A stretch of 32,000 nt of DNA from Erysipelotrichaceae bacterium MTC7. GTDB lineage: Bacteria > Bacillota_I > Bacilli_A > Erysipelotrichales > Erysipelotrichaceae. This document shows, piece after piece, positions 4,464 to 32,000 of the stretch. The DNA lies in contig LVZN01000023.1 of assembly GCA_001695645.1 (NCBI GenBank), positions 30,001-62,000 of the forward strand. The letters are read 5' to 3'. Each line of letters starts with the position of its first letter. Within the stretch, counting starts at the first letter, position 1. The translations under genes were made by a program, and so were the position numbers. The notes beneath the pieces were generated by a model. The model had not been told where the DNA came from, ran no database searches, and saw only the letters and a program-made list of their open reading frames with translations.

Positions 4464-6089
4464 TTACTTATTGTATTTTCTTCTTCTAATGAATACGCTA
4501 CATCCATATAACATTGAAATGCTTAATAGTGCAAACAATACCCTTGTACTAGAGCCATCTCCGGTTTTAACAACTGCACCATCTCCTTGTGGTGTTGTGC
4601 TTGGGCGACCAATCGTACCTGATGTTCCTTTGTCACCATTATCTGTTGTATTATCTTCTTCTTTATCTGGTGTACCAGGTTTTTTGTTAATTACCCAGTT
4701 AAGTGAGTTTGATGTTTCTTTGCTATCTTTAAATTCATAGTTTTCTGGATCTTTTAAAGTTGCAACTCCAGTGTAATTACCAGCAGCAGTTTTTTCAATA
4801 TCACCAGTTAAAATAACATTTGCAGCATCGTAATTCTCAAGTATATCTACTAGTTTATGTGCTTTTCCGTTTTCTGTAAAACTACCATTTACTGTTGGTA
4901 TATCAACCTTTTTCTTACTAACAGTAATTTTTAGGTCATCAGTCTTACCTCCATATGTAATCGTAACAACGTCATCAGACAATGTAAGATTGTCTGATAA
5001 AGAAAAACTGAAGTCATTTTGATTTTCAATGTATTTAATATCTCTACTAGGTATTGTTTTGCTATCCACAATATAGCTTGCTGTAATCACTAAATCTGTT
5101 GGATCATATGAATCCCCAAATTCATAATTAATTTCTGAGGGAGTTTTCACTTGAATGGATGCTACATCATAAGGAATTGCATGCATGCCACCTTGGTTAT
5201 TCAAAAATGTTTCTGCATGTATTGCTGTCCTTAGATAGTAAACACGTACCTCTGTGTTGATAAACACACGCACTCCCCATCTTGAAAGATTGGTTTCAGT
5301 AAGAATAATGTCATCAAGGCTTGTACAACCATTAAATGCATATGATTCGATTGTTGTCACTACGTTATTGTTTTCCAAGCCTGTACTTGTTAAATTCACA
5401 CAGTAGGCAAATGCAGCTTCTTCGATTGTTGTCACTGTACTATTTTTCTCTAATTCTGTACTCGTTAAATTCAAACAAAAGGAAAATGCCGCATACCCAA
5501 TTGTTGTCACTGTACTATTCTTATCCAAGCCTGTGCTTGTTATAGAACTTGCAGTAAATGCCCCATCTCCAATTCTTGTCACCGTGTTATTTTTCTCTAA
5601 TCCGGTGGTTATTAAATTATGACAGAAGGAATATGCCCCATCCCCGATTGTTGTGACAGTGCTATTATTCTCTAATCCGGTACTTGTTAAATTCACACAC
5701 GAGGAAAATGCGTCAACTCCGATTGCGACTATATCATAAGTAAAATCATGATACTTAACCGAAACAGGTATATATAGATCACCACTTGAGTCACTATGAA
5801 TAGCACTCATAAAATCGTCCTTTGATTGTATTGCTACGGTTCCATTTTGACCATTTTTTGATTCAGATAAAACTTTAAACGACGTTTGTACTGCAACTCC
5901 GCCAACTTCAACTCCCAAAGTCTCGAAATATTCACCCTCTATCGGTGTTGTTAGTGTTGTTGCTTCTATTTTATTAGCAGTGACCTTTAATTGCTCAATT
6001 CCTTTTCCATCTGTAAATCCAATCGCGGTAAATATTAAAAATAATACTAAAAATAATCTTGCGTACGTATTCAATTTTCCCTTTTTCAC
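4464..6089 (-). CDS. Cell-wall-anchored BspA-type leucine-rich-repeat surface protein (paralog 1)
   Basis: GTG start with GGGAGG 8 nt upstream. The protein has an N-terminal signal peptide and five roughly 25-aa repeats (NLTSTGLENNSTVTTIGDGAYSFC), followed by Ig-like modules (NYEFGDSYDPTDLVIT). The C-terminus reads VVKTGD, then a hydrophobic helix, then RRRKYNK. Confidence 0.85.
   Translation of the reverse strand: MKKGKLNTYARLFLVLFLIFTAIGFTDGKGIEQLKVTANKIEATTLTTPIEGEYFETLGVEVGGVAVQTSFKVLSESKNGQNGTVAIQSKDDFMSAIHSDSSGDLYIPVSVKYHDFTYDIVAIGVDAFSSCVNLTSTGLENNSTVTTIGDGAYSFCHNLITTGLEKNNTVTRIGDGAFTASSITSTGLDKNSTVTTIGYAAFSFCLNLTSTELEKNSTVTTIEEAAFAYCVNLTSTGLENNNVVTTIESYAFNGCTSLDDIILTETNLSRWGVRVFINTEVRVYYLRTAIHAETFLNNQGGMHAIPYDVASIQVKTPSEINYEFGDSYDPTDLVITASYIVDSKTIPSRDIKYIENQNDFSFSLSDNLTLSDDVVTITYGGKTDDLKITVSKKKVDIPTVNGSFTENGKAHKLVDILENYDAANVILTGDIEKTAAGNYTGVATLKDPENYEFKDSKETSNSLNWVINKKPGTPDKEEDNTTDNGDKGTSGTIGRPSTTPQGDGAVVKTGDGSSTRVLFALLSISMLYGCSVFIRRRKYNK
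5280..5777 (-). repeat. In-frame tandem 75-bp (25-codon) LRR coding repeats, about 5 units
   Basis: The unit x-L-T-S-T-G-L-E-x-N-x-T-V-T-T-I-G-x-x-A-F-x-x-C recurs in the protein. The period is visible at nucleotide level. Confidence 0.8.
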
Positions 6090-11635: not shown

Positions 11636-14296
11636 TTATTCGAATTTACCAAGCACCTTCAATTTGGAGTCAATCATCTTTTGATTGGCATAGGCAAAAC
11701 ATTTTCCACGAGCTTTCAATAAGATTTTACGACCGTTTGCACTTCTTGTATATACAAGGTCACATCGTCCTAACATCCGCTTTACTTGATGCAAGAATAT
11801 TTCTGCATCTTGTTTACGCTTGGCAAATACTTCTGGCACAACAAAGTACTTGTTTAAAGCATTTTTATGACCTTTTCGTACGATGATGTATCGTTGATTT
11901 TCCACCAACGCAAAATACTCTTCCATACAAGTCGAAAATAAATGTTTATCTTTGGCGCTTCCACCTTCCAAGTACGCCATCATCGTGCTCGCTGCTTGTA
12001 CGTTCTTTACCCGTACATACTTACTTTCATGACTCACTAGATTCAGTTCCTCAAGCGCTGCTAGCATTGCTTGTCCCACTTTCTTGACGGTATGTTGTGG
12101 AGTCACGTAGGCAAATAGACGTGACAACCCCCAATCTAAAAGAAAGATAAGAACGATAGCTACAAGAAGTATGCCAATCGCGGTAAATGGGGTGACTGGC
12201 ATGGTTTGATAAAACAGTCTTTGGGCGGCCTGAATTGCAATCGTTGTGATGACCATACACATGACAAACATCCAGTAATTGGTAAACACATAGTTCTTTT
12301 TCAATAGTTCTACATCAAGTTCAACCACATCTTCGATTGGGACTTGTTGGTTCACACAAACAAGCGCTTCATTCCATCGTTCATGCAACTCCTTGCGTTT
12401 TCTAGCTGCTTCTAGCATTTGTTTGTTGATCTTTGCAACTGTTTTTTCATCAAGTGTATCACCTACATCTTGAATATAACTTAGTCTTGCAAAACCACTT
12501 TCGATCACCGGCTTTGTATAATGGACACCCAAAAATGTCTTGAACCGTCGTTTCAGTGTCTGTAGATCAATGGAATGAAAAGGATCATAGAGAATGTCTT
12601 GTTTGTTCATTTTTGGTTCGATGCAAACCAAATGCCAAATATTACTCACTTTATTTGGATCACTCATGGATTTTCGAATGGCACGACCGCGCATCTGATT
12701 GCTTAATACAAACGAACCTACAAAGGATGCCAAAATCAAAGAATTGATACTAGGGGAATCCCAACCTTCACCAAGCAAGGCTTTTGTGCCTATCAATGCT
12801 TGAATTTGTCCGTTTTCAAAAGCTAAGGTTACTTGTTTTACAAGTGTGCCACTTTCCGCATTACTTTCTAGTAAGACATAGTCATCCACTGGTAACTTTA
12901 CAGTCTGTGAGGTGTATCCCAGTTCACGTAAACGTTCGCAAATAGAACTTGCAACAGCAACCGGTAAAATGATGACTGTTCCACTGAGTACAGCAAGCTT
13001 CATTTGTACAGATTGACTGCGAAGCGTTTCAAAAATGGTGATAGTCCCGACACTTTGACTCATCTTACCTGTACCAAGTAAATCTAACGCCTCTTTCTTG
13101 ATAAAGTCACAAAGAATCAACATGCGCAAATTTTCTTTCATGTTGTCATATTCAGCCAATGCAATCGTTTTGATGCTTTCTAGTTTTCCTTTGCTATTGA
13201 TTAACAGTTTATCGATGCGTTCATTGGTAATCATTTTGACTTGCTTACGCTGGATACATCCATATTTTTTTAGAATTTGACGCAAAACTTCAATTTCGTT
13301 GTTTTTATTAACAAAACGATCTGTATCATCATACAAGATACCTTGCATCAAAATTTCTAAATGTTTCACTGACAATGTCGGTAAGTTTCCTTTTTTGACA
13401 GACAATACTTGGTTGAGTTGGCTTGGATAAACGATTTGTTTTTCCTGCATGTACATCATTAATGCATACAAATAGGCTGGTTGTTCAAGCAGTCGATCCA
13501 AACATTCATTTGGATTTTTTAACACTTGATGGCTCGAAACAAGATCGTACAGCTGTTTAGAATCCATTAACTCTTGCTGACAAAGTAAAACTTGTTCCTT
13601 GTATTCTTTGATGGCTAATTTTTCCTCTTTGGTTGGCCAGTTGAAGTACACGTAATCTTGGTGCGGACATAGACTTTCTTCCTTGACCAATTCAGGTGTA
13701 AAGATTTCTTCATCAATTGGTCCACACAAATCAATGTATCGCTTCCATTCATTTGGGTTTGCATCATATGGTGGAGTTGCGGTAAGCGAGATTAAGCGAA
13801 TACCTTCCAGTTGTCCAAGAATTTGTTCAAGCACTTTCACCCATTCATTACGCATATGGTGTGCCTCATCTAAACAAATCACCTTTACATGTTGCGCTTT
13901 CAAATAGGCGACCACATCAATCGAATCAAGTGCATCATCACTTGCCTGTTTGGTATACATGCTATGCAAAGCTTGATAGGTAATTGCGGTGATTGGCTTA
14001 TAGTCGAGTAGACTGTTGGATAGATAGGTTTTTGCTTGAACTGTTTTACACAAAAAAGCATCCTGTATGCGAGCTAACCACTGTTCGCGTATCGTGATGC
14101 TAGGTGTTAATATGAGACAGTTTGCGCCCAATTGTCGAATCATTTCAATGCCTACAGTTGTTTTACCTGACCCCGGTGCAGCAACAATATGTATTTTTTC
14201 ATCAGCTTTGTGTTGGTCAAAGTTATCCAACACACGTTTTTGATACAATCTCCACGTACCCCTAAATTTCAAGACATTATCAAATTGATTCATCAT
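11636..14296 (-). CDS. SF2 DEAH-box helicase with predicted two-helix membrane hairpin and uncharacterised C-terminal domain
   Basis: 886 aa. Walker A AAPGSGKT (14159-14182), LDEAHH (13856-13873), SLTATP and motif VI QMRGRAIR are present. Hydrophobic segments lie at residues about 670-692 and 702-723 (nt about 12128-12289). GAGGG sits 5 nt before the ATG. Confidence 0.9.
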   Translation of the reverse strand: MMNQFDNVLKFRGTWRLYQKRVLDNFDQHKADEKIHIVAAPGSGKTTVGIEMIRQLGANCLILTPSITIREQWLARIQDAFLCKTVQAKTYLSNSLLDYKPITAITYQALHSMYTKQASDDALDSIDVVAYLKAQHVKVICLDEAHHMRNEWVKVLEQILGQLEGIRLISLTATPPYDANPNEWKRYIDLCGPIDEEIFTPELVKEESLCPHQDYVYFNWPTKEEKLAIKEYKEQVLLCQQELMDSKQLYDLVSSHQVLKNPNECLDRLLEQPAYLYALMMYMQEKQIVYPSQLNQVLSVKKGNLPTLSVKHLEILMQGILYDDTDRFVNKNNEIEVLRQILKKYGCIQRKQVKMITNERIDKLLINSKGKLESIKTIALAEYDNMKENLRMLILCDFIKKEALDLLGTGKMSQSVGTITIFETLRSQSVQMKLAVLSGTVIILPVAVASSICERLRELGYTSQTVKLPVDDYVLLESNAESGTLVKQVTLAFENGQIQALIGTKALLGEGWDSPSINSLILASFVGSFVLSNQMRGRAIRKSMSDPNKVSNIWHLVCIEPKMNKQDILYDPFHSIDLQTLKRRFKTFLGVHYTKPVIESGFARLSYIQDVGDTLDEKTVAKINKQMLEAARKRKELHERWNEALVCVNQQVPIEDVVELDVELLKKNYVFTNYWMFVMCMVITTIAIQAAQRLFYQTMPVTPFTAIGILLVAIVLIFLLDWGLSRLFAYVTPQHTVKKVGQAMLAALEELNLVSHESKYVRVKNVQAASTMMAYLEGGSAKDKHLFSTCMEEYFALVENQRYIIVRKGHKNALNKYFVVPEVFAKRKQDAEIFLHQVKRMLGRCDLVYTRSANGRKILLKARGKCFAYANQKMIDSKLKVLGKFE

Positions 14297-14392
14297 ATTT
14301 TCCCTCTAATATAGGTAATATAGCACAAATCATCTACCACGTACATAACTCACTCACTATGATATGACGAGCATCTATATTTGCTTTCGTGT

Positions 14393-14448
14393 ATAAAAAA
14401 GATAGATGTTGATTATGTTACATGTAAAATAACTATCAAATCTATCTT
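14393..14448 (-). terminator. Terminator-like inverted repeat downstream of LRR adhesin gene 2
   Basis: AAGATAGAT (14399-14407) pairs with ATCTATCTT (14440-14448). The 32-nt loop contains the palindrome TTACATGTAA. A T-run follows on the minus strand. Confidence 0.4.
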
Positions 14449-14479
14449 CTATTTATCTAAAGTTTATCCTATGCGCTAC

Positions 14480-16258
14480 CTATTGTTTATGAAAGTTTCT
14501 TTTTCTCCACAAGATAAGGAAACCTACTAAAACTGATCCGCCAAATAACATAAGCAATCCCATCACATTTACTAAATCTCCAGTTGGAATCACCGTACTT
14601 GTGTTAGCTACTTCTCCGTTAAACACTGGTTTTACTTCAACTGCTTTTTCATCATTTGAAGAGTTTGTTTCTGGAAGGCTGATTGTATCTGAAATGGTAT
14701 CATCACTTGGTTTGCTTGCATCAGTTGGTTCATTGATGTCACTTGGTTGATCAACCTCTACAGCTTTCTCTTTAATTGTCCAAGTTAAATCTTTCGCATC
14801 AGATGTCCCATCTGACCACATGTAATTGTCAACATCCTTCAATTGAACTTTTCCTGTGTAAATTCCTGCATCACTCTTAAGCACATCTCCTACTAACTGC
14901 ATCGTTGAATCATCATGACCATCAAGAACTTCTGAAATGTGATGTTCTGTTCCATCGTGTTCAAGTTCACCATTAACTGTAGGGATGTTAATTACTTTTT
15001 TATTCACGTTAATATCCAACGTTGTTGTTTTCCCTTTATAGGTAATTGTTACTGCTTCATCCGATGCTTTAAGATTGTCCGATAAGTCAAAAGTAAAATC
15101 GCTTTGATTTTCGTTGTATGCGATGTCGTTTAGCATCTCAAATCCATCTTCTGCAACAGTGTATACTGTAATAACTAAATCTGTTGGATCATATGAATCA
15201 CCAAATTCATAATTAACTTTAGAGGGTGTATTCACAGTGATTGATTTGACTTCATAAGGAATCGCTCTCCAGTCAGTCGGAGTTTTCAAGAATGTTTCTG
15301 TGTTTGTTGCATTTTTAGGATAATAAACATTTACATTCGTCATATTAAATACATTTGCTCCCCATCTAGAAAGATCTGTTTCGATCAAGATGACATCATT
15401 CATGCTTGTGCACAATAAAAAAGCATAATCTCCGATCGTCGTTACCGTTCTATTATTTTCCAAACCTGTACTTAGTAATTTATAGCACTGTTGAAATGCA
15501 CTTTCTCCGACTGTTGTAACTGTCTTGTTTTTTTCTAAGCCTGTACTTACCAAACTAGTACAACCTGCAAATGCAGCATCACCAATTGCTGTTACTGTAT
15601 TGTTACTTTCCAACCCTGTACTTGTTAAGCCATCACAACCATCAAATGCATAATCTCCAATTGTTGTTACCATGTCGTTGCTTTCCAATCCCGTACTTGT
15701 TAAGCTATTACAAAATCGAAATGCATAATCTCCAATTGTTGTTACCTTGTCGTTACTTTCCAATCCCGTACTTGTTAAACTGGCACAAAGTGCATATGCA
15801 AGATTTCCAACCGTAGTCACTGTTGTGTTACTTTCCAACCCTGTACTTGTTAAGCTTTGACAGTAATTAAATGCATATTTACCAATTGATACTATATCAT
15901 AAGTATTGCCTTCGTATGTTACAGTATTAGGGATATATAAATCCCCACTTGCTGATCTAGCAATAGCAGCATCATTTCCAATCCCAGCCCCTATCTCCAC
16001 AGTTCCATTTTGACCGTCTTTAGGTTCTGTTAAAATTCTAAATGATGTTGCAACATAATTCCCTGCAACCTTAACCCCATCAACACCATCTTCAGTTTTA
16101 AAATACTCCCCACTTTGTAATGCTGCACGTGGCGTCACTTCGACTTCACTGTCCTTTACTTGCAAGCTTTCTGTTGCTGCTGGATCAGTAAATCCAGTTG
16201 TTGTAAGCATGATCACGATCATAAGACATATCATACTGTATTGTTTTATTTTCTTCAT
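14480..16258 (-). CDS. Cell-wall-anchored BspA-type leucine-rich-repeat surface protein (paralog 2)
   Basis: GGAGG lies 5 nt before ATG 16258 (MKKIKQYS...). The protein has a signal peptide and six 25-aa LRR units (SLTSTGLESNDKVTTIGDYAFRFC). It shares the Ig-like module NYEFGDSYDPTDLVIT with paralog 1. The C-terminus reads VIPTGD, then a hydrophobic helix, then WRKRNFHKQ. Confidence 0.85.
   Translation of the reverse strand: MKKIKQYSMICLMIVIMLTTTGFTDPAATESLQVKDSEVEVTPRAALQSGEYFKTEDGVDGVKVAGNYVATSFRILTEPKDGQNGTVEIGAGIGNDAAIARSASGDLYIPNTVTYEGNTYDIVSIGKYAFNYCQSLTSTGLESNTTVTTVGNLAYALCASLTSTGLESNDKVTTIGDYAFRFCNSLTSTGLESNDMVTTIGDYAFDGCDGLTSTGLESNNTVTAIGDAAFAGCTSLVSTGLEKNKTVTTVGESAFQQCYKLLSTGLENNRTVTTIGDYAFLLCTSMNDVILIETDLSRWGANVFNMTNVNVYYPKNATNTETFLKTPTDWRAIPYEVKSITVNTPSKVNYEFGDSYDPTDLVITVYTVAEDGFEMLNDIAYNENQSDFTFDLSDNLKASDEAVTITYKGKTTTLDINVNKKVINIPTVNGELEHDGTEHHISEVLDGHDDSTMQLVGDVLKSDAGIYTGKVQLKDVDNYMWSDGTSDAKDLTWTIKEKAVEVDQPSDINEPTDASKPSDDTISDTISLPETNSSNDEKAVEVKPVFNGEVANTSTVIPTGDLVNVMGLLMLFGGSVLVGFLILWRKRNFHKQ
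15371..15943 (-). repeat. In-frame tandem 75-bp LRR coding repeats, about 6-7 units
   Basis: CTTTCCAATCCCGTACTTGTTAA recurs at 15681 and 15756, exactly 75 bp apart. Degenerate copies lie on both sides. Confidence 0.8.
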
Positions 16259-16381
16259 ATTTTCCTCCATTTTTCTTCATTTATTTTATATTTCTATGCC
16301 GTTCCTTTTTGTACCCTTCACCTCCATAGCCACTTGGTTTATAAATAAGTATTCGTTTCTCCAAAAAGGTTGGGTACTTTT

Positions 16382-17719
16382 TTATAATTTAAATAAAAAT
16401 ATATTCACATTCTCTTTACTGTCGCATAACACAACCAAAATCTCACCTTCAAAAATCCCTTCAAGATCATGACCTGATGGTAATTTCAAATGCTTGTCTT
16501 GGTATACAATATACGAATTATTGTAATCAATACCATTTTTCGTCTGTTGAATACGCAGAGAAATACCATGATTATTTTTACGTATTGAAGTAACAATTGG
16601 AATATCGTTATCAATGTTTTGGATATGGACAATTCTTTTTTCTTGACCAACCTGTACTTTATACATGCCATTATCATGAGCATAAAAAGTATAGTAGTCT
16701 TTAATGCGTGTATGCCACAACTGTTTTTGGTTACATTGCACACCTATATCTGCACTTGTGTTTGTATCAAATGGATATATTCGTACTTCAAGTGGTCCAG
16801 CAATGGGTTGTGGAACATAGCGAACTTCTTTAATTGTTTTCGTAACATTTGAAACTTTATCCTTTACAGTCGTTCTACTATCGTGAAAATCTTTGGTTGT
16901 AATTTGTTCATACTCCTGAAAAGAACTAAAGTTAACACTTTGGTTCACTGCACCTGTAAGCTGAAAATTTGGAAGGATGACCATACTTGAAAAAACACAT
17001 GAGATGACAAGACTCATTGTTTCCATTCTAGACAAAGCCTGATGCACTACCTTGCCATATGACCTCTTCTTCACATTACGCATCTTCACTTTACATGCAC
17101 GTTGGTTATCTTTTTGCATGATATCAAATATGTAGAACCCACCATTGTAGCTATAATACTCATCTGGCGTGTATCCTTGTTTTTTCAAATCTGTAATCAG
17201 TTTTTGTCGTACTTCGTAAATTCTACTTTTGACCAAACTTGGTTTGATTTCCAATTTCTCAGCAATTTCTTTCTGGGAAAGTCCTGCTAGAAAACGAAGT
17301 TGGGCTGTTTCTTTGTAAGTTGGACTTAACTTTTGAAACGAAGCGAGAATCGCATTCATAATCGTTGTATTATCAAAGTCAAGCTGCGGATTTTCTGGTG
17401 AAACGACAAGTTGCTCTAAATCACATTCATCGCTTATTTGCACAGTTTGTTTCTTTCGCTTTAGTTTTGTCTTACATATATTTCCTGCAATACCAAAAAT
17501 CCAATAGTGAAACGCTTCTTGATTTCGTAGTTGATAGATTTTTTCAGTTATGACACACATGACATCCTGAACAACTTCTTCTGCATCGTGAGTATTACGT
17601 AAAATCGATAGTGCATAGCAATATAATGGTCCTTGGTAAAATTCAAAGATTTCAACGAGTGCATGTTTATCACCATTTTGTAGTCTATTGACAACGCTAT
17701 CTTCTATCCGCTTATTCAT
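16382..17719 (-). CDS. Sigma-70 family (ECF-like) sigma factor fused to a TM helix and a roughly 190-aa extracytoplasmic domain (paralog 1)
   Basis: Region 2 reads DAEEVVQDVM...FHYWIFGIAGN. The region 4 HTH reads LSQKEIAEKLEIKPSLVKSRIYEVRQKL. A basic stretch KVKMRNVKKRSYGK precedes the TM helix TMSLVISCVFSSMVILPNF (nt about 16964-17023), followed by a beta-rich C-terminal domain. Confidence 0.85.
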   Translation of the reverse strand: MNKRIEDSVVNRLQNGDKHALVEIFEFYQGPLYCYALSILRNTHDAEEVVQDVMCVITEKIYQLRNQEAFHYWIFGIAGNICKTKLKRKKQTVQISDECDLEQLVVSPENPQLDFDNTTIMNAILASFQKLSPTYKETAQLRFLAGLSQKEIAEKLEIKPSLVKSRIYEVRQKLITDLKKQGYTPDEYYSYNGGFYIFDIMQKDNQRACKVKMRNVKKRSYGKVVHQALSRMETMSLVISCVFSSMVILPNFQLTGAVNQSVNFSSFQEYEQITTKDFHDSRTTVKDKVSNVTKTIKEVRYVPQPIAGPLEVRIYPFDTNTSADIGVQCNQKQLWHTRIKDYYTFYAHDNGMYKVQVGQEKRIVHIQNIDNDIPIVTSIRKNNHGISLRIQQTKNGIDYNNSYIVYQDKHLKLPSGHDLEGIFEGEILVVLCDSKENVNIFLFKL

Positions 17720-18051
17720 TATCCACTCCCTTTCGATTGCATTTCTTTTTCATATAGATTCACCAACACGATCAATTGCGACTATTTAGACACTACAAGA
17801 AACGATGTCAGAAATGTTGCCAACCCATTTTATAAAAATAATTGATTAATTGCAATATTTTAATAAATAATTTAATGATTATTCATAACATAATCGATAA
17901 GTAAAGCGAAGTCGTTGATCAACAACCCATTACTCGGTGTCTAGATCTAGCAAGTGTTCGTGTTGTCTTTTAGCTTATTGAAGAAAAAAAGCAGAGAGTA
18001 TGATCAGTAAGTTGGGGTTTACTGATATACCCTGAACAATTTGAAATAAAG

Positions 18052-18107
18052 AAAAGATAGATAATGAATAATCTACGTTTATTAGTAGATGACAAAATCT
18101 ATCTTTT
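18052..18107. terminator. Compound inverted repeat (terminator-like) in the long non-coding gap
   Basis: AAAAGATAGAT (18052-18062) pairs with ATCTATCTTTT (18097-18107). An inner ATCTAC/GTAGAT stem lies inside. T-runs are present on both strands. The arms match those of the 14399-14448 repeat. Confidence 0.4.
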
Positions 18108-18212
18108 TTGTATTTTTTCATTGTAAGGACAAATTAAAATGTTACTCCTTCATAAACACATGATAGTACATGTTATGACACTATCGATGGAATCATAAAA
18201 CAATTCCTAACG

Positions 18213-18247
18213 CTAAAAAGGCTGCTCCTTAGGACCAACCTTTTTAG
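18213..18247 (-). terminator. Candidate terminator downstream of the GH89 gene
   Basis: CTAAAAAGG (18213-18221) pairs with CCTTTTTAG (18239-18247), a 9-bp stem with a 17-nt loop. It lies about 150 nt past the stop. Confidence 0.45.
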
Positions 18248-18397
18248 ACATATGAATGAAGGGCATACGTATCCAAATTTCATTGCATGCACACTGTCTC
18301 GACGATTTTATATATGAAATCTACACATGCTTTGAATTTATATTTACGAATCTCAATCTTCACTTTATCAAAACTATTTTCATAGTTTCAACCAAAT

Positions 18398-21300
18398 TTA
18401 TTTTGCTTTTGTAAAGCGTTTACGTCCTAGCGCATACATCAATACAAGTGCAAAGCCTAAGACGACTACATCTCTTGCAACATTTGTTGCATCACCCGTA
18501 TTCGTTCCTGAACCAGTACTACTTTGATCACCTTGACCCTCTGGCGAGATGTTTGGTAATGAAACTCCTGGTTTTACTTCCAAGTTACGAATTGCGTTTT
18601 CTAAGTTTGCAAATGCATCTTGTAGTTGTGATACGCTTGCTTGCTCATCTGCAAACACTGCAAGTGCTTGTTGGTAAGCAAGTTCAAATGCAGTATATGA
18701 TGCTAATGTATAGTCACTTCCATCAAGATATGCTTTTGCTTGTTCAAGCAGGTTTGCTAGTGCATCTTTGCTTGGTGCATAATCTGCATCAACAAGTGCA
18801 TCAATAGCTTGTTGCAATGCTGCATTTGCATCATCTAATTCCACTTGATTTATGCTCACTTGGATAGCGATGTCTTGTGCTTTCTTCAAAGCAGCAAGCA
18901 ATTGCTTCCACGAGTTCTCTGTATAGTCTTCACCATGCAGTTTACGTACGTTTGCAATCGTATCAAGCAAGCTTTGACGATTCAACAAGACAAGTTGATC
19001 TACTTTGTCTTGCACATCTTTGCACATTTGATCAAGGTCTTCTTGATTGACACTGATTTGGTTGTAAAGTGCGTTAGCAATTTGACTAAGTTCGACCAAC
19101 TGTGCATAGGAATCTTTACTATACAAAGATTCATCAAGTGCTGCTACTTGGTCCAACAAGGCTAACAATTGACTACGGTCAAGTGTTACGAGTTGCTCCA
19201 TCGCCGCAAGTAAAGCATCTGTTGCTGCTTCAATTTCAAGCATTGACGTGCTTGTTTCATTTATTTTAAGCGCTTGTTGTAAAGCACTCGTGATAGCTTT
19301 CCATGAGTCTTTTGTGTAATCTTTTTCTTGTAATGTACTTGCTTGCGCAATGGCTTCTACCAGTGCATCTTTGTTGTAGGTAACCATACCATCCTTAAAT
19401 GTAGTAATGGCTGTTTCTAGTGCACTTGTAATCGCATCAATTTCACTCGTTGGTTTACTTTGATGGTATCCACTAGTCGCTACTTGAATTGCCTTTTCTA
19501 AAGCATCCATTGTTGCTTGACTGACTTGTCCAACTTGGTTTCCCACAGAGGTTTCTTCAACTAAGCTTTGTGCAATGGCAAGTGTTGCATGATAGCGTCC
19601 AATGCTATCGAGTTTGGCAATGGCTACCTCTTTTGCTTGTTGCAAAGTCAAGGCCGCCTCATCCAATTGTTGCTGACTTACTTTGGTTGTATCGTAAACG
19701 ACTTTCGCTTTGTCGTATGCAGATGTTAGGGTTGCATCATCTGCCAATTCATCAATAGCAAGTAAAGCTTTTACTTCACATAGTTCCACCAACAATCCGG
19801 TACGATCAATGGTAATGTAAGTTTTAAGGAAGGCTGCATATGCATCTTTCAATGCTTGGATGTGTGCATTTGCTTCAGCTGAATTTAAAGCATTCGTTAA
19901 GGCTTGTTTTGCAACATCCACCTTTTGATCAAGTGCATCTTTTGCAGCTTGTGGATAATTCCCTGCATATTCACCAATGGTTACTTTTGCAAGTGCATCG
20001 TTTAACGTATGGATGTACGCTTCTAATGCTGCATTTGCTTCCTTGTGATACAAGTTAAAATCATGAAGTTCACATGCATTTAACAAAGTTAAACGAATGC
20101 GACTTGTTAATACTGGATCAAATTGTGTGACATGTTTTTTGCTGATGCTTAAGTTGTTCGATTCATCATCTAGCATTTCCCAAGTATCAACTTTTGCATC
20201 ATTTGCGTATTCCACTTTGTATTGTAGTGCTGATGTTGCATCTTTATACAACTCATACGCGTAAATATCAACTGGTTTTTCAAATGCAAAGATAAGCTCT
20301 GTTTCTCCTTGTTGATTGAAGTTTACAAATGTGTCATAGTTTCCATCCACTAGTTTTGCTTTTTCATCTGCGCTCAAATCAACATTTGAAGTGATGGTCG
20401 CAGTTTCTGACATACTTTCTGGTTTTGTGTAGGCCTCAATTTCTGAAAGTGCAGGCGACGCCAAATAGAAGTTTCCACCTTGTGCACGGCCTTCGATTAC
20501 GACGTGAATCTTTGAACCAACGATGTTTGCTGGAATTGTATACATCGCATCTAAATCGGCTACATTATCTAATTTATCAAGAATGGTTGTACGTTTCCCT
20601 GAAGCATCTTCGATATCGACTTTAAACTGAAAGCGAATTCCTGCCTTTTCAAAATACACGCGTACTTCACTGATTTCTTGATCTGCTTGTAAATCTGTAG
20701 TAAACGTTGTTGGGAAAATATCCGTTTGAATGTTTTCCAAATCGCTTAGATCCCCATTTGTTAATTTGTCTGTGTTATATTGTTTCTTTTCGTTGCTAAC
20801 AAGTCCTGGTTTGCCAGCTGCTATGTTTTCACTTTTGAATGATACTTCTTGTTCTTTTAGTATTTTAACTTCTGCAAGTGCTGCCCATGCGCCAGGAATC
20901 GATCCACCAGTTGCACGACCAATAAATTCAATGGATACCTTTTTCACATTTGCATTTACACTAATCTTATACATGCGTTCAAGATCAACCGCGTTATTTG
21001 ACATATCTAACACGGTGGTTTTTACGCCTTTTGCATCTTCTACAACCACTTTGTACTTGAATGGTAAGTCTTTCTTTTCAAAGTATAGTTCGATAAGATC
21101 CACATGTTCTTCTTTGCTTAAATCGATGTAGAAGTTTGTTGGAAAATGACCTCCATCATTTACCCAAATACTTCCCAAATCACCATCGATGGCATTACTT
21201 GGCGCTCTTCCGCCTTGTGAATTACGATCTGAACTTGCAGTTGCACTTAGCGCTAAGTTTTCGTATACAGCTTTCTTTTCCGCTTTTCCATATACGATAA

Positions 21301-23104
21301 GTTCCGTTACTTCTGGAATAATGCTAGTATCACTTGTTGATAAAGTAAAGCGCACTTGACTAGCAATTCCACGATAGTCAATTAGGGTTTGACTTGTCAT
21401 CAACTGCTCTTCTTGTTTGGCAATGGATGTCCAAGAACCATCTTGGAAAACTTCAACTTCATAGGCGTATGGAAAACCACCTGCAAGTTGTGGCAATGAA
21501 ATTTCCATACCCTCAATACTTGATACGTTTTCTAAGTCCACAGTTAACGTAAATGTGCCCTCGTTTTTTTCTGCTTTCCATGGTGTGTTTTTATTTCCAT
21601 CGGTTAGATTGCTTAGTGGGTTTTGATGGTCACTAGTAACTGAAGCACTTACGTTTTTGCCTAACGCAATGTTTTCTTTTTCTTCCACTTCCCCAACAAT
21701 CGTTTCTAAAACATCCAAGCTATAGTTTTCACAAGCTTGTAACGTAAGTTGGCTAATGTCTAAATCTGAAGCAGTTGTTGTATACGTGCTTCCTTCATCA
21801 CTTTTCTTGTTGACCCATGCCCACTCCATCATAAACCAATCACGGTTTGGCATATTTGTTCCACTTGCTAAGTTTGCTTTTATATCATTTACCCAACGTT
21901 CCCATCTAGGATAGTAGTAGTCTTTTGTAAGTCCTGCCCACTGACGGTTGGAGTAGTCTTTTAATCCACCACCATTGGCATTCTTTTTACCACCCCAAGT
22001 GGTAATCAAACTTCGCGCATTGAATTCAAATAAATCCTTTGTCCAATCATCTGCATCAGCCAACATACTGCGTGCATCTTCTAACCAATTTCCAACGAGG
22101 AAATCCTGGTTTGTTGATAAGACTTGATCTTGTAGTAAAATCATTTCTAAAAATTTATCTGCGACTGCACTAAATTGTTTTTCATCTTTTGCATTGTATG
22201 CATTGACCATCGCTTTGTGATAGTCTTGTGCTGCATTGGCAAGTACTTGACGTGTAATATCAGATAGATCGTATAAGAAAGCAGGACTGTCTTTGAATGT
22301 ATCGTAATTTTTAGCCATCAAATACGCAGCTCGTTCAAGTTCTTTTTTATCGTAGTTGATGGTACTGTGTCCCCAAGTTGAAGCAGATGTAAAGTTCATC
22401 GTAGGCCGTGCATTCATCACGGATTCAGCTGCCCCTTGGTAATAGCTGTTTTTCTGGTTGTAGCCAGTATCCAGCAAGATGTTCCATACTTCTTCAATAT
22501 CTTGGTTGGTTCCACCATAATTGCGTTCTGCGTACTTTTGCACCCAATCACGGTAATCGATGGCATCCTTTGTCCATGTCATATCCCACAACAGTTCGTA
22601 AGCCATTGGTGAATTTTCAAGGGCTTCTGGTGTCATTCCAATTCCTGTCATATACGATTTTTCGGCATATGCTTTTGGAATTTCTTGTGCTAGTTTTGCT
22701 GGATTTGCATCAAGACCCATGCGCCCACCAAAGTTGTGAAGCATGTTCCAAACCCAAGGGATTTGATTGCGTTCCATCACATCGGATTGCGAATTGATTT
22801 CCGAGAATAAATCCAAGACCATCGCATGATCTTTTTCCTTGAGTCCTTGTAGTTTTGCATCTGACATACTACCTTGCCATTGTTGGATTAACCAAATCGC
22901 ATCTTTGTCATGTTCCATCATTTTCTTTTGAATGATCTCATAAACTTTACTTACATTCATATCTCCAGTTCTTCCACCTTCATGGAAAGGGTCCACTGCA
23001 TAGATATCTGTAATCTCACCAAATAGATCAGTTTGTGCTTGATAGAACACATCTGCCATTTCATCAAAATAGTCTTTTCCACTATTCACATATGTCGCTA
23101 ACAT
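18398..23104 (-). CDS. GH89 alpha-N-acetylglucosaminidase, downstream fragment: rest of TIM barrel, C-terminal helical domain, four CBM32-like modules, FIVAR repeats and a wall-sorting signal
   Basis: The NAGLU-like catalytic region includes AVDPFHEGG and WVWNMLHNFGG. The F5/8 type C-like modules include NLTDGNKNTPW and NAIDGDLGSIW. Ala-rich FIVAR units of about 70 aa include DYTKDSWKAITSALQQA. The C-terminus reads TNTGD, then a hydrophobic helix, then GRKRFTKAK. The tracked ATG is probably not a real start (see pseudogene entry). Confidence 0.85.
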   Translation of the reverse strand: MLATYVNSGKDYFDEMADVFYQAQTDLFGEITDIYAVDPFHEGGRTGDMNVSKVYEIIQKKMMEHDKDAIWLIQQWQGSMSDAKLQGLKEKDHAMVLDLFSEINSQSDVMERNQIPWVWNMLHNFGGRMGLDANPAKLAQEIPKAYAEKSYMTGIGMTPEALENSPMAYELLWDMTWTKDAIDYRDWVQKYAERNYGGTNQDIEEVWNILLDTGYNQKNSYYQGAAESVMNARPTMNFTSASTWGHSTINYDKKELERAAYLMAKNYDTFKDSPAFLYDLSDITRQVLANAAQDYHKAMVNAYNAKDEKQFSAVADKFLEMILLQDQVLSTNQDFLVGNWLEDARSMLADADDWTKDLFEFNARSLITTWGGKKNANGGGLKDYSNRQWAGLTKDYYYPRWERWVNDIKANLASGTNMPNRDWFMMEWAWVNKKSDEGSTYTTTASDLDISQLTLQACENYSLDVLETIVGEVEEKENIALGKNVSASVTSDHQNPLSNLTDGNKNTPWKAEKNEGTFTLTVDLENVSSIEGMEISLPQLAGGFPYAYEVEVFQDGSWTSIAKQEEQLMTSQTLIDYRGIASQVRFTLSTSDTSIIPEVTELIVYGKAEKKAVYENLALSATASSDRNSQGGRAPSNAIDGDLGSIWVNDGGHFPTNFYIDLSKEEHVDLIELYFEKKDLPFKYKVVVEDAKGVKTTVLDMSNNAVDLERMYKISVNANVKKVSIEFIGRATGGSIPGAWAALAEVKILKEQEVSFKSENIAAGKPGLVSNEKKQYNTDKLTNGDLSDLENIQTDIFPTTFTTDLQADQEISEVRVYFEKAGIRFQFKVDIEDASGKRTTILDKLDNVADLDAMYTIPANIVGSKIHVVIEGRAQGGNFYLASPALSEIEAYTKPESMSETATITSNVDLSADEKAKLVDGNYDTFVNFNQQGETELIFAFEKPVDIYAYELYKDATSALQYKVEYANDAKVDTWEMLDDESNNLSISKKHVTQFDPVLTSRIRLTLLNACELHDFNLYHKEANAALEAYIHTLNDALAKVTIGEYAGNYPQAAKDALDQKVDVAKQALTNALNSAEANAHIQALKDAYAAFLKTYITIDRTGLLVELCEVKALLAIDELADDATLTSAYDKAKVVYDTTKVSQQQLDEAALTLQQAKEVAIAKLDSIGRYHATLAIAQSLVEETSVGNQVGQVSQATMDALEKAIQVATSGYHQSKPTSEIDAITSALETAITTFKDGMVTYNKDALVEAIAQASTLQEKDYTKDSWKAITSALQQALKINETSTSMLEIEAATDALLAAMEQLVTLDRSQLLALLDQVAALDESLYSKDSYAQLVELSQIANALYNQISVNQEDLDQMCKDVQDKVDQLVLLNRQSLLDTIANVRKLHGEDYTENSWKQLLAALKKAQDIAIQVSINQVELDDANAALQQAIDALVDADYAPSKDALANLLEQAKAYLDGSDYTLASYTAFELAYQQALAVFADEQASVSQLQDAFANLENAIRNLEVKPGVSLPNISPEGQGDQSSTGSGTNTGDATNVARDVVVLGFALVLMYALGRKRFTKAK
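18600..20080 (-). repeat. FIVAR-type alanine-rich helical coding repeats (about 6-7 units)
   Basis: Blocks of the form D..AL..A...A......YT..SW..L..AL..A recur in the translated protein. Confidence 0.7.
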
Positions 23105-23134
23105 ATCCGGACGTGCAAACCCACACCAGTCACC

Positions 23135-24454
23135 TTATGCAATCACTGCAGCATCCGCAAATTTTGTTTTAAAGTTACTAGGAACCATGCCAGAGAATCC
23201 ACTTAACACTGGAGTTATACCATAGGTTTGCATGCGGTCATGCATTTGTCTTCCTAGTTCCACGCGGCTTTCAAACCAATTATCGGGTAATGGTCCTCCA
23301 TACCCAGTCATATTTTGCATATAGTACCAAGCAAAGTATCCTGGCCCAGAAATGTATTCTTTAATTTCTGTGTCACTGTAACCATATGCTTGTAAGGTAC
23401 GACGAACGACTTCTTCTTGACCCACAATATCAAGTACGGTATTGATTCCAGACATGGCTGCCCAGTCTAGAAATGCTTCATATTCATTCCAGTCCCAAAA
23501 AGCCATCGTATACGAATAAGTACAGAAGTTTAATGCATAACGATAATCATACTCTGTTTCCTTCACAATTTTTTTGTCGAGTGCTGGTAAGCTTTCTGGC
23601 ATTTGCAGTTGTGAAGCAAAGATTGGGTTGTAATCAACCTTACAGTAATTGCGTAAGTAGTAATTGAATCCTGAAGCCATCGCCACCCCATTGTTTCCAC
23701 GAATGATAATGGTTCCTTCCGCCCCGTTTTCTAGTTCAAAAATATCTTTTCCCTCTAAGTCATCGCGCATTTCAAACGTGAACTTACCAGTCCATGCTTC
23801 CCCAATAACGCGTCCAACTAAGTTTGACATTTCTTGTAAAGTCTTCGAGTTTGCATACGCTTGATCGTTTGCAAATTTGTCATACGCATCTTTCCATTTG
23901 GTATCTGCAAAGTTATCAACCTCAATTTTATTTTGGTCAACTTGTTTATCACCAATGCGTTCCCCGTATACTTCAACCTCGGCAAGATTTCCCTCCATCA
24001 TACCTGAGGTATAACTTAAATTAATTCGGATAACACTCGCTTCTACACCTGCTAGCGCATGGCTATCCCCTGCTGTTGTTGCTTTTGTCTCATCATCTTT
24101 GTACGCAACTTTCTCAAATGATGATCCGGTTTTGGATGCATAGATTTGATAGTTATAGTATGGTCCTACATTGTTGAAAATTTTAATCTCACTAAGGTTG
24201 TATAAACCATCCAATTGTAAATCAATGCTCCGGTAATGATCTTCTTGGGAGTTTGAAGATGGTGTTTGATAAAATGTATTTTTATTACCATCCACTGCCA
24301 AAGATGCATCATGTCCACTTGAGCTTTTTGCTGTTGCCGTAATATTTTCTATTTTACTTTGCGCTGCTTTTAAAGAAACTTCTGGATAAGTTACTACGCT
24401 TAACGCCATAAGTGTTGAAAATGCTACACACAATAATGTCCTCAATTTATGCAT
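23135..24454 (-). CDS. GH89 alpha-N-acetylglucosaminidase, upstream fragment: signal peptide, CBM32, NAGLU N-domain and start of the TIM barrel
   Basis: AAGGAGG lies upstream of the ATG. The signal peptide reads MHKLRTLLCVAFSTLMALSVV. The F5/8 type C module includes AVDGNKNTFYQ. The NAGLU N-terminal and catalytic motifs end at ...GFSGMVPSNFKTKFADAAVIA, then TAA. Confidence 0.85.
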   Translation of the reverse strand: MHKLRTLLCVAFSTLMALSVVTYPEVSLKAAQSKIENITATAKSSSGHDASLAVDGNKNTFYQTPSSNSQEDHYRSIDLQLDGLYNLSEIKIFNNVGPYYNYQIYASKTGSSFEKVAYKDDETKATTAGDSHALAGVEASVIRINLSYTSGMMEGNLAEVEVYGERIGDKQVDQNKIEVDNFADTKWKDAYDKFANDQAYANSKTLQEMSNLVGRVIGEAWTGKFTFEMRDDLEGKDIFELENGAEGTIIIRGNNGVAMASGFNYYLRNYCKVDYNPIFASQLQMPESLPALDKKIVKETEYDYRYALNFCTYSYTMAFWDWNEYEAFLDWAAMSGINTVLDIVGQEEVVRRTLQAYGYSDTEIKEYISGPGYFAWYYMQNMTGYGGPLPDNWFESRVELGRQMHDRMQTYGITPVLSGFSGMVPSNFKTKFADAAVIA

Positions 24455-29027: not shown

Positions 29028-29134
29028 AAGTACCTCCATTACATTAAGTATACGCTAGATTTTGCAGATTACATGTAAATGACTGGTTTTATCAATATCA
29101 CTTTGTAAATTTTTTATACACAGCACACACAAAC

Positions 29135-29177
29135 AAAAGGATATGCTGCACATACGTGATGCGCTACATATCCTTTT
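29135..29177 (-). terminator. Terminator-like hairpin downstream of sigma-fusion paralog 2
   Basis: AAAAGGATATG (29135-29145) pairs with CATATCCTTTT (29167-29177), an 11-bp stem with a 21-nt loop. It is followed by GTTTGTGTGTG on the minus strand. Confidence 0.5.
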
Positions 29178-29363
29178 GCTTTAGGAAAGCAATCTTTGCT
29201 TACAGGGTCGCAAAAATTACCATCCAACTTCAATTTATGTGTGACAGAAGTTGGAAAGGCTTACTTCTTTATCCTTGAAGAAGCATCCCTTCATTATTAA
29301 GACGAAAGGTGTACCAAAAAGGTTCAAAAAACTTTATCAAATTTACAGACAATTTCTTAAAAC

Positions 29364-30829: not shown

Positions 30830-32000
30830 CTATTGTTCTTTTCTTCTTTTCTTATAGGCAATGCAACAAACCACAATGGCACTTAACACAGCGTATATTA
30901 ATAGAGTATTTACTGGATTGTTGTCCCCTGTTTTTATACTTGGTAAAGCTTCCAATTCTTTACTCACTGCAGTTTGCGGTAGTTGACGAAACGGTTCATC
31001 CTTCGATTCTTCTTTTGGATCTCCCTTTGGATCATCCTTTGGTTCCTCTTTAGGTTCCTCTGTTGGCACTTCAACTATTTTCTCATTATAAGCTTTGACG
31101 ATAATTGTTTGCGTGGTTTGTGCATCAATTGTAAATTCAAGTTTTTCTGTTGATAACGTGTACCCGTTTGGTGCTTTTGTTTCTACAAAATAGTACGATC
31201 CTTCTTGTAACTTTTCAACTGTTATTTCACCATACATGTCAGTCACATAAGCAACATCATTGAGCTTGATATCATCTTGACCAGTTGCGACTTTGTATAA
31301 ATCAAAGTGTGCATCATCCAATGTTACAGTGTCATTTCTTCCTTCTTCATATTTGATAAGTTTCACATCTACTGTGTTTAACTTTCTGTTATACACGTTG
31401 GTAACAATGGACGCTTGCCCATAGTTTTGAATCACAACTTCAAATACATGCGTTTGACTATCTGGGCTTGCATCCAGTTCATATATGGCATCTTCTACGG
31501 TATATCCGTCTGCTGCTTTCAGTTCTTTCCAATAATAATATCCTGCATCCAAGCCACCAACTTTAGCGGTTCCCCATGGATTTGTGATAACTTCTTTAAC
31601 TAACGTATCATTTTTCGAAGGTGTTGTACCATCTGCAACTTTATATAAACCAAATGTAGATTCTGCAATGGTTTGTTTTACATCTTCATCTTTTGTTGCT
31701 AGATCATATTTCTTAACAGTTGCACTACCCTTAGCATCGCCAACGATAGTACCGCTATACGTACTAAATACAACTTTCTTTTCATCAGATGCTACTGTAC
31801 CATTTTTCCAATACATATTTGCTTGGTTTGTAACATTTTCGCCTTCCATCATTCCATCAGCAAAACTTGTTTTCAACTTAATGGTATATGCAGGAATCAC
31901 ATAACCTACTTTTGCAAATTCCGTGTCTAAATACTTGGCTTGTTCTTTTGTAAATATTTCTTCATCTTCCTTAACACCATCAACTTCAACTTCTCTTGTT
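30830..32000 (-). CDS. Cell-wall-anchored Cna-B/SpaA (prealbumin-fold) repeat surface protein, C-terminal part (ORF is open to the right edge)
   Basis: The tracked GTG at 31900 is internal. I translated 31901-31999 in frame (..TREVEVDGVKEDEEIFTKEQAKYLDTEFAKVGY-VIPAYT..) and found no stop. Cna-B-like units include FGLYK...GYYYWKELKAADGYT and FDLYK...GSYYFVETKAPNGYTL. A PKEEPKDDPK linker follows. The C-terminus reads SIKTGD, then a hydrophobic helix, then KKRRKEQ. Confidence 0.85.
   Translation of the reverse strand, partial: TREVEVDGVKEDEEIFTKEQAKYLDTEFAKVGYVIPAYTIKLKTSFADGMMEGENVTNQANMYWKNGTVASDEKKVVFSTYSGTIVGDAKGSATVKKYDLATKDEDVKQTIAESTFGLYKVADGTTPSKNDTLVKEVITNPWGTAKVGGLDAGYYYWKELKAADGYTVEDAIYELDASPDSQTHVFEVVIQNYGQASIVTNVYNRKLNTVDVKLIKYEEGRNDTVTLDDAHFDLYKVATGQDDIKLNDVAYVTDMYGEITVEKLQEGSYYFVETKAPNGYTLSTEKLEFTIDAQTTQTIIVKAYNEKIVEVPTEEPKEEPKDDPKGDPKEESKDEPFRQLPQTAVSKELEALPSIKTGDNNPVNTLLIYAVLSAIVVCCIAYKKRRKEQ

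Follow-up and report, generated by a model that had tools for sequence, protein, structure and literature searches.

A predicted membrane-tethered ECF sigma factor with a tandem Ig-like ectodomain and its neighboring leucine-rich-repeat adhesin gene in Erysipelotrichales

How is a sigma factor controlled, and which gene does it serve, when a membrane segment and a putative sensor are part of the same polypeptide? This question is raised by a gene in a stretch of 32,000 nucleotides (nt) from Erysipelotrichaceae bacterium MTC7 (contig LVZN01000023.1, positions 30,001 to 62,000; the whole stretch is called the window here and is numbered from its first letter). The gene encodes an extracytoplasmic function (ECF)-like sigma factor continued by a hydrophobic segment and a β-rich C terminus, and it lies directly upstream of a gene for a leucine-rich repeat (LRR) surface adhesin. 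A first, sequence-only reading, made without database searches, had singled out this arrangement. Having followed it up computationally, we consider it reasonably probable that the protein is a membrane-tethered one-component ECF sigma factor, released by proteolysis, which drives the adjacent adhesin gene and probably its own. Coordinates of the features discussed are collected in Table 1.

Table 1. Features of the window, with positions in window numbering
Feature	Position	Strand	Remarks
Sigma-transmembrane-sensor fusion gene	16382..17719	(-)	445-aa single open reading frame; family members fused throughout
Sigma region 2, residues 26-90	17450..17644	(-)	PF04542 (Sigma70_r2), 32.2 bits, cut-off 24
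Sigma region 4 helix-turn-helix, residues 123-174	17198..17353	(-)	PF08281 (Sigma70_r4_2), 38.1 bits, cut-off 25.7
Cytoplasmic linker, residues 181-232	17024..17179	(-)	QGYxPxxY motif conserved; K/R-rich near the membrane in the window protein
Hydrophobic segment, probable single transmembrane helix, residues 233-252	16964..17023	(-)	Kyte-Doolittle 19-residue mean 1.69
Variable extracytoplasmic spacer, residues 253-292 (~40 aa)	16844..16963	(-)	Predicted local distance difference test (pLDDT) 30-37
Two tandem Ig-like β-sandwiches, residues 293-368 and 369-445, presumed sensor ectodomain	16385..16843	(-)	
Partner gene, BspA-type LRR surface adhesin, 596 aa	14480..16270	(-)	LRR_5, E=6.9e-35; likelier start ATG 16258
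P_LRR, ECF-type promoter-like site	16336..16375	(-)	Starts 9 nt past the sigma stop
P_sigma, weaker related promoter-like site (GGCAACATTT...)	17783..17822	(-)	~100 nt upstream of the sigma start
Second, distant sigma-transmembrane-Ig fusion gene, 442 aa	29364..30692	(-)	Sigma region 2 and region 4 matches
Paralogous BspA-type LRR_5 adhesin	4464..6089	(-)	Shares 45% identity, domain order, and anchor with the first; no adjacent sigma gene

Architecture and extent of the fusion family

The N-terminal 180 residues of the protein are an ECF (group 4) sigma factor. Regions 2 and 4 both exceed their Pfam cut-offs, the Sigma70_ECF match in Pfam spans residues 9-178, and the TIGRFAM/NCBIfam model TIGR02937 is matched at 85.1 bits (cut-off, 42.9), while no Pfam match to sigma region 1 or region 3 was found in the fusion protein at E≤0.01. 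The best-scoring NCBIfam equivalog, SigW, attains 78.4 bits where 209 are required, and the others likewise stay below their cut-offs. In an AlphaFold2 model of the fusion protein built with a 77-sequence alignment, pLDDT is 92-98 in region 2 and 85-95 in region 4, and low confidence between the two regions is confined to residues 94-110. Structural searches with Foldseek place the N terminus closest to SigW, AlgU, and sigmaE (E~3e-7). The open reading frame starts with an ATG that has GGGAG 5' of it, and comparison with an 89%-identical relative gives a ratio of nonsynonymous to synonymous substitution rates (dN/dS) of 0.11 for the sigma domain, which points to purifying selection. The earlier assignment of residues 1-180 to a group-4-like sigma factor thus stands, as does the claim that sigma factor, membrane segment, and extracytoplasmic β domain share one polypeptide, on which the reading frame, Pfam, and the structural model agree.

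Just past region 4, the linker opens with QGYTPDEYYS (residues 181-190; pLDDT ~80), in which Q181, G182, Y183, P185, and Y188 are invariant across 7 homologues and which reduces to G..P.KY.S as the majority consensus (at least half of the sequences) of 77 family members. Past residue 190, pLDDT drops below 65, and it is below 50 for residues 212-291. No anti-sigma domain was matched in the linker by a Pfam scan of residues 181-445 at E≤10, which returned only two spurious weak matches (PycTM, 0.0075; Tantalus, 0.071); this part of the protein otherwise has no Pfam or Protein Data Bank sequence match. The zinc-finger motif HxxxCxxC was not found in residues 181-232, which contain a single Cys, and there was no zf-HC2 match. 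The linker is also too short for a class I anti-sigma domain, a four-helix unit of ~80-90 residues, because only ~50 residues separate region 4 from the transmembrane helix. A short class-II-like inhibitory helix in the linker is possible. Given a linker of this length with no anti-sigma domain, either the tethering or such a short helix would have to hold the sigma factor inactive.

The probable transmembrane helix falls exactly at the position given by the sequence-only reading (nt ~16964-17023), and although its hydrophobicity is marginal, its place in the protein is conserved throughout the family. All 77 members have a hydrophobic segment at the aligned position (around residues 216-264), with Kyte-Doolittle means of 1.3 to 3.28, and the window value is often far exceeded. 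Within the close subfamily, S236, L237, S245, and P250 of the segment are invariant. The basic juxtamembrane stretch described earlier was found as well, with 8 K/R and 0 D/E in the 25 residues before the helix and a single K/R after it. The positive-inside rule was nonetheless dropped as family-level evidence for topology because the bias is not conserved among homologues. We infer that the sigma module is cytoplasmic and that residues 293-445 lie outside the membrane.

The outer part of the protein had been described as a β-rich domain of roughly 190 residues. It really comprises a spacer of ~40 residues, variable and modeled with low confidence, followed by 153 residues of tandem Ig-like domains that are confidently predicted (pLDDT 89-97). 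The spacer is only 5-20% identical to those of homologues, except for the close relative P0002 (87%). In the Ig-like domains, N350, G351, Y353, I369, D370, P374, and S402 are nearly invariant among the 77 members. Foldseek matched the C terminus to generic tandem Ig/FnIII folds (NCAM Ig1-2, myomesin, IL-13Ralpha, and MET IPT; E 2e-4 to 1e-3), and because only such generic tandems were matched, the fold is uninformative on ligand specificity.

To what extent is this fusion a property of a family? A profile of residues 176-445, with the sigma part left out, was searched exhaustively against 1.84e9 protein representatives and returned 104 proteins, of which 83 reach E≤1e-10; the family comprises about 90 clusters. 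Nearly all are 410-465 residues long and matched at their C termini; the weakest matches are Ig-like repeats (DUF7743/Big_13) of giant surface proteins. Sigma70_r2 and Sigma70_r4_2 were found in every one of the 77 full-length members, and with the same uninterrupted architecture in all of them, the fusion defines the family and is not an artefact. A word-indexed whole-protein search, which found only 7 full-length relatives (36-89% identity; three are Breznakia blatticola paralogues), had implied a small family, and the exhaustive profile search corrected this. Searching genome contigs with generic sigma patterns returned almost only ordinary ECF sigma factors, with the locus L014 as the sole true member, and neither a homologue search with an ectodomain alignment nor a metagenome-contig scan gave a match. 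Breznakia species and Coprobacillaceae metagenome-assembled genomes are the only sources of named members, all of which are annotated merely as "RNA polymerase sigma factor." The window itself is Breznakia-like, its P-type ATPase having 87% identity to the one of "unclassified Breznakia." At least four copies occur in B. blatticola (P0004, P0006, P0007, and P0010) and two in the window.

It could be argued that separate sigma and anti-sigma genes were joined here by a frameshift or in assembly, or that the gene is a pseudogene in decay, and a neighboring gene of the NAGLU family does carry an in-frame stop. Nothing else speaks for this explanation. The uninterrupted architecture recurs in 77/77 clusters from independent isolates and metagenomes, and the sigma domain is under purifying selection. 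We therefore regard an artefact as ruled out, its probability being close to nil.

Pairing with surface-protein genes and shared promoter-like sites

The neighboring gene encodes a protein with LRR_5 repeats, a weak Big_3 match, a Sec-type N-terminal signal, and, as read from the translation, a C-terminal anchor of the form "PTGD + hydrophobic + RKR"; the repeats, secretion signal, and anchor together identify it as a BspA-type LRR surface protein. The gap of 111 nt given earlier between the sigma stop and the adhesin gene holds for ATG 16270, but ATG 16258 has the better-placed GGAGG, and the gap is then 123 nt. As noted before, the gap has no convincing terminator: no terminator-like site was found in it, and local hairpins are no stronger than -2.3 kcal/mol.

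We examined 16 loci (L001-L014, L094-L101, and the window with both its cassettes). In 14 of the 16, the sigma-fusion gene is followed on its own strand by the gene for a surface protein that is anchored and contains LRR and/or InlB-B-repeat (Flg_new) modules, with a significant surface-protein domain match in 12 of these 14; L094 has only a weak Flg_new match (E 0.0014), and L014 has B-repeat-like sequence read from the translation but no Pfam match. The downstream proteins belong to different domain types (LRR_5; DUF285 with Flg_new; Flg_new_2; LRR_1/4/8/14, some with Endotoxin_C2), and those of the L095/L096 type, which are without LRR, are counted among the 14 through Flg_new. The second cassette of the window is an exception to the pairing, which persists down to 20-25% identity. 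Other flanking genes vary from locus to locus (phosphotransferase system genes, GAPDH, malic enzyme, IMPDH/PGK, NAGLU); since all other neighbors differ, the unit is a two-gene cassette. No conserved gene for a separate anti-sigma factor was found across these loci. The sigma and surface-protein genes are 61-152 nt apart in the close subfamily and 18-30 nt apart or overlapping in distant members, which indicates that in the latter the two form a true operon. One metagenomic contig (L100, 4061-11422) carries two sigma-fusion/LRR cassettes in tandem, each with a CGAACC... -35-like box upstream and a sigma-LRR spacing of 18-21 nt, which shows that a cassette was duplicated in situ.

From this conservation, the neighboring LRR adhesin gene is most likely the target of the sigma fusion. 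The sequence-only reading had called it a co-transcribed or target gene; the pairing agrees with a target, but simple co-transcription does not account for the window subfamily, where the adhesin gene has a promoter-like site of its own. It is better described there as a predicted target gene with possible read-through.

This site, P_LRR, reads CCAACCTTT, 18 nt, CTTAT, with predicted -35 (CCAACC, 16373-16368) and -10 (CTTATT, 16349-16344) elements. In the close subfamily the motif takes the form C-A-A-(A)-C-[C/A/T]-TTT, followed 18 nt after AAC(C) by CTTAT, CCTTyT, or TCTAAC, and it is found in two positions, 60-105 nt upstream of the sigma start and again 2-10 nt past the sigma stop. The post-stop copy is kept in 7/7 close loci, and an upstream CAAC[A/C/T]TTT motif stands at a comparable position before the sigma gene in 6/7. 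When a leave-one-out matrix was built from the upstream sites, the post-stop site was the top match in 6/6 gaps, with an empirical p≤0.008 in 5/6. A matrix from other loci only, scanned along both strands of the window (64 kb), gave P_LRR (16375, -) as its best match, at 14.9 bits against 10.3 for the runner-up. Furthermore, the -10 windows are more alike within than between loci, the observed sum being equaled or exceeded in only 8 of 720 re-pairings. Such concordance is what recognition by paralogue-specific sigma factors would predict. The AAC -35-like box and its spacing resemble those of ECF promoters. The consensus of E. coli sigmaE is GGAACTT-N16-TCAAA, which the geometry of the motif (AAC, 18 nt, TCTAAC/CTTAT) resembles.

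Further elements accompany these sites. Both promoter copies are followed, 10-25 nt past the -10, by a conserved "ATGTGTGTGGAGG(T)" element (16300-16335, minus strand, in the window), which also occurs in the intergenic regions of L001, L004, L005, L009, and L010. Before sigma genes it is the Shine-Dalgarno sequence; the post-stop copies are followed by a tiny open reading frame ahead of the adhesin start (MQRIT* in L009, MQWIT* in L001, and MEVKGTKRNGIEI* in the window; asterisks mark stops). This suggests that promoter and leader were duplicated as one block. Upstream of 137 in L009, a B. blatticola paralogue, the -10 and leader are kept in comparison with L010, and the -35 CCAAC has become the housekeeping-like TTGACA; expression here may have turned from autoregulated to constitutive. 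Matches to Rfam models in 14000-18500 were at chance level only. The intergenic RNA folds with z=-2.05, and in read-through transcripts the -35 sequence ACCUUU could pair with GGAGGU; we did not adopt a riboregulator on this basis because the pairing follows automatically from two conserved motifs.

Known systems, a proposed mechanism, and its alternatives

Contrary to what the first reading implied, the covalent fusion of a sigma factor to a sensor is not unprecedented, as both IutY and the ECF48/52/53 proteins (SCO4117) are known hybrids (PMC8999054, PMC5411451). IutY of Pseudomonas putida is a sigma/anti-sigma hybrid of group ECF243, whose sigma domain is freed by Prc and then RseP (PMC5411451, PMC8999054). 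Like the window protein, it combines an N-terminal ECF sigma factor, one transmembrane helix, and an extracytoplasmic domain in one polypeptide, and its target is the adjacent gene, in that case for a receptor. IutY, however, belongs to a Gram-negative host, contains an anti-sigma domain of the FecR type, and is partnered by a TonB-dependent outer-membrane receptor, whereas the window protein has a tandem Ig-like ectodomain and an LRR adhesin partner in a Gram-positive-type host. The Pfam scan of residues 181-445 at E≤10 gave no FecR-type domain, and a TonB-dependent receptor is absent from every locus examined. Actinobacterial ECF48, ECF52, and ECF53 (e.g., SCO4117) carry a C-terminal extension with 1-2 transmembrane helices and an extracytoplasmic domain, and proteolytic activation has been proposed for them (PMC8999054, PMC5826349). 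They have a ZAS-like zinc-finger motif before the membrane, and ECF52 also has a Pro-rich region and a carbohydrate-binding domain; the window protein, in contrast, is without HxxxCxxC or zf-HC2, comes from another phylum, and has a dedicated adhesin partner. In ECF263, the sigma factor is fused to 5-7 transmembrane helices. The described ECF groups with transmembrane extensions are actinobacterial, proteobacterial, or multi-helix (PMC7826278, PMC8999054).

Looser parallels are found among two-protein systems. Two reports on cellulolytic Clostridia describe many SigI/RsgI paralogues with differing extracellular sensors, dedicated targets, autoregulation, and regulated proteolysis (PMC10575876, PMC10556640). 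They resemble the family studied here in having multiple sensor-sigma units per genome that drive, or in our case are predicted to drive, dedicated genes for surface or secreted proteins, and they differ in that SigI and RsgI are separate proteins, SigI is not an ECF sigma factor, and RsgI has RsgI_N and an autoproteolytic SEAL domain. No SigI model was among the 25 NCBIfam matches listed of 75, the fusion protein has no RsgI_N match, and its predicted ectodomain is all-β, unlike the SEA-like α/β fold of the RsgI SEAL domain. Canonical Gram-positive pairs such as SigW-RsiW and SigV-RsiV generally signal by way of a single-pass membrane partner and regulated intramembrane proteolysis, and SigW, along with AlgU and sigmaE, is the nearest structural match of the window sigma domain; in these pairs, however, the anti-sigma factor is separate and has a class I domain, as opposed to a covalent tether with no such domain. 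Membrane-extended sigma fusions are therefore already established, and the window family is an undescribed one that belongs with neither IutY nor ECF48/52/53. No paper on its members was found, and in the literature searchable neither the tandem Ig-like ectodomain, the lack of an anti-sigma domain, and the strict pairing with LRR/B-repeat adhesins, nor the duplicated private promoter and the multiplicity per genome, has been described.

We propose that the cytoplasmic sigma2-sigma4 module would be tethered to the membrane by the C-terminal extension of the same protein, made up of conserved linker, one transmembrane helix, flexible spacer, and tandem Ig-like ectodomain, and that this extension would stand in for the separate anti-sigma factor of other systems. 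An external cue acting on the fast-diverging ectodomain could then trigger proteolysis in two steps: the ectodomain and spacer would be trimmed, after which a site-2 protease would cut within the membrane to free the sigma factor. Together with RNA polymerase, the freed sigma factor would turn on the LRR adhesin gene from the CCAACC, 18 nt, CTTAT promoter past its own stop, and probably also act on the related promoter of its own gene, giving positive feedback. Proteolytic release is inferred because IutY is cut by Prc and then RseP (PMC5411451) and because ECF48/52/53 are predicted to behave likewise (PMC8999054). Weak hints of release within the protein itself are the disordered spacer and, in the close subfamily, an invariant Pro and two Ser in the transmembrane helix. 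Helix-destabilizing residues favor site-2 proteases.

Several observations weigh against this model. The linker of ~50 residues has no recognizable anti-sigma domain, the transmembrane segment of the window protein is marginally hydrophobic (Kyte-Doolittle, 1.69) and modeled with low confidence, and a strong positive-inside bias is confined to the window protein and its 89% relative, other homologues not sharing it. Among the promoter-like sites, the close locus L095 has no post-stop motif that we could see, the motif is without the CGT -10 common to many ECF promoters, and its core 8-mer by itself is common enough in the window (11 copies, with 5.9 expected). In addition, P_sigma of the window scores poorly and is not among the top matrix matches. 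This makes autoregulation less secure in the window than in its relatives, and P_sigma is only a tentative candidate for an autoregulatory site in this strain.

Comparison of the window with L002, a comparison of two sequences only, bears on what the ectodomain might sense. The flanking helicase (98% identity; dS 0.074, dN 0.009) and the sigma domain (97%; dS 0.105, dN 0.012) are well conserved, whereas Ig-like domain 1 (80%; dS 0.19, dN 0.10) and Ig-like domain 2 (77%; dS 0.38, dN 0.107) mark the ectodomain as an apparent local hot spot of divergence between the strains. The raised dS of the ectodomain suggests allelic recombination in addition to selection that is relaxed or diversifying. 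At ~99% identity (dS 0.008, dN 0.002-0.007), the adhesin differs from that of L002 (11450-13315) by no more than one indel of a 25-residue LRR repeat and five substitutions. The uniformity of the adhesin beside so diverged an ectodomain argues against the co-encoded adhesin as its ligand and favors an external, variable ligand; next to a nearly invariant adhesin, the sensor would seem to face an external ligand that changes. As a separate observation, an adhesin dS far below the 0.07-0.10 of its flanks suggests that this allele has recently been exchanged or has undergone a sweep, and that its repeat number varies.

An alternative hypothesis is that the sigma factor acts without being released and recruits RNA polymerase at the membrane in the manner of ToxR/CadC-type regulators, with the ectodomain modulating it allosterically or by oligomerization. 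The architecture would fit this equally well, there is no anti-sigma domain that would need to be destroyed, and the target promoter directly adjoins the gene, an arrangement that would favor co-localization of the nascent protein and its DNA site. However, we know of no sigma factor that acts while membrane bound. IutY, the only characterized sigma/anti-sigma hybrid, requires cleavage by Prc and RseP, and the disordered spacer and conserved transmembrane Pro and Ser suit protease access, such that we think a membrane-bound mode of action unlikely. An equally unlikely possibility, in our estimate, is that release proceeds as proposed but that sensing involves the surface protein as well. The Ig-like ectodomain would then bind the LRR/B-repeat adhesin, and cleavage would follow either when a ligand is engaged or when the adhesin is missing, as in a Gram-positive version of FecA-FecR-FecI signaling. 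In favor of this, deeply diverged members still keep the gene pair even where their LRR proteins are of different classes, binding of Ig-like domains by LRR proteins is known (MET-InlB is among the Foldseek neighbors), and in cell-surface signaling the target of the sigma factor is the receptor gene itself. Adjacency of regulator and target nevertheless requires no physical interaction, and an adhesin that is ~99% identical between window and L002 (dS 0.008) beside an ectodomain at 77-80% (dN 0.10) does not look like tight co-adaptation.

The regulatory link itself could also be denied: the cassette might simply travel together, with the adhesin gene expressed from a housekeeping sigma factor or by read-through and the post-stop motif being the remnant of a terminator or attenuator. 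In L010 and L001, the spacer of the motif folds into a hairpin of -11 kcal/mol followed by a T-run, which may attenuate read-through, and the commonness of the core 8-mer noted above fits this explanation, as do the sigma-70-like hexamers that occur in the region at chance frequency. In the window, however, the hairpin at the site is negligible (-2.3 kcal/mol), on which ground a terminator was rejected there, while it may have a secondary role in L010 and L001. The same motif also stands upstream of the sigma genes, where there is nothing to terminate, the leave-one-out matrix and the concordance of -10 elements within loci speak against this explanation, and an AAC -35 with correct ECF spacing fits a promoter. 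The absence of any regulatory link is thus improbable, and a tethered, releasable sigma factor with a dedicated promoter is the model that we prefer.

No branch of bacterial signaling has been studied less than that of ECF sigma factors with a membrane sensor built in, of which IutY alone has been dissected in detail. The family described here offers a compact two-gene unit from a Gram-positive-type gut lineage, with one sensor-regulator protein, one predicted promoter, and one adhesin gene, and its size and several copies per genome make the release of a covalently tethered sigma factor practical to study. It may explain how BspA/internalin-like adhesins, which are implicated in host attachment, are controlled in the poorly known Erysipelotrichales. 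For engineering, the cassettes could also provide small sensor-promoter parts that are mutually orthogonal. We speculate, with considerable reserve, that Breznakia and related Erysipelotrichales hold a set of such cassettes that work orthogonally, each linking one sensor to exactly one LRR/B-repeat adhesin through a private promoter variant. Were this so, the set would constitute a Gram-positive form of cell-surface signaling, in which distinct host or environmental cues, read by fast-evolving tandem Ig-like ectodomains, decide through proteolytic release which adhesin is displayed.

Other genes in the window

The second fusion gene of the window is a distant relative of the first, with 30% identity in the sigma part and an ectodomain that matches the family profile at 36 bits. 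Past its stop lies a canonical ECF-like site, GAACC-N16-CGTCTTA (~29325), and the following region (29040-29363) contains two hairpins, one of which is terminator-like (~29170-29125). No surface-protein gene follows; the next gene encodes a DUF488 protein. This locus may therefore be a decayed cassette or may give rise to a short transcript. Its upstream neighbor (30830-31900) has SpaA/Cna-B-type domains. For the paralogous adhesin at 4464..6089, no convincing copy of the promoter motif was found in the 435 nt upstream.

A NAGLU-family surface glycosidase (18398-24454, minus strand) carries F5/8 type C and FIVAR domains and a C-terminal anchor. Its frame of 2019 codons is interrupted by one in-frame stop near 23135 (...AVIA*GDWCGF...), where the L002 orthologue is intact at 2018 residues; the stop reflects a nonsense mutation or else an error in sequencing. 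The C termini of this glycosidase (18398-23104) and of both adhesins (14480-16270 and 4464-6089) share the pattern "x-T-G-D," ~20 hydrophobic residues, and a basic tail (IPTGD..., VKTGD..., NTGDAT...), which looks like a lineage-specific cell-wall sorting signal unlike canonical LPXTG.

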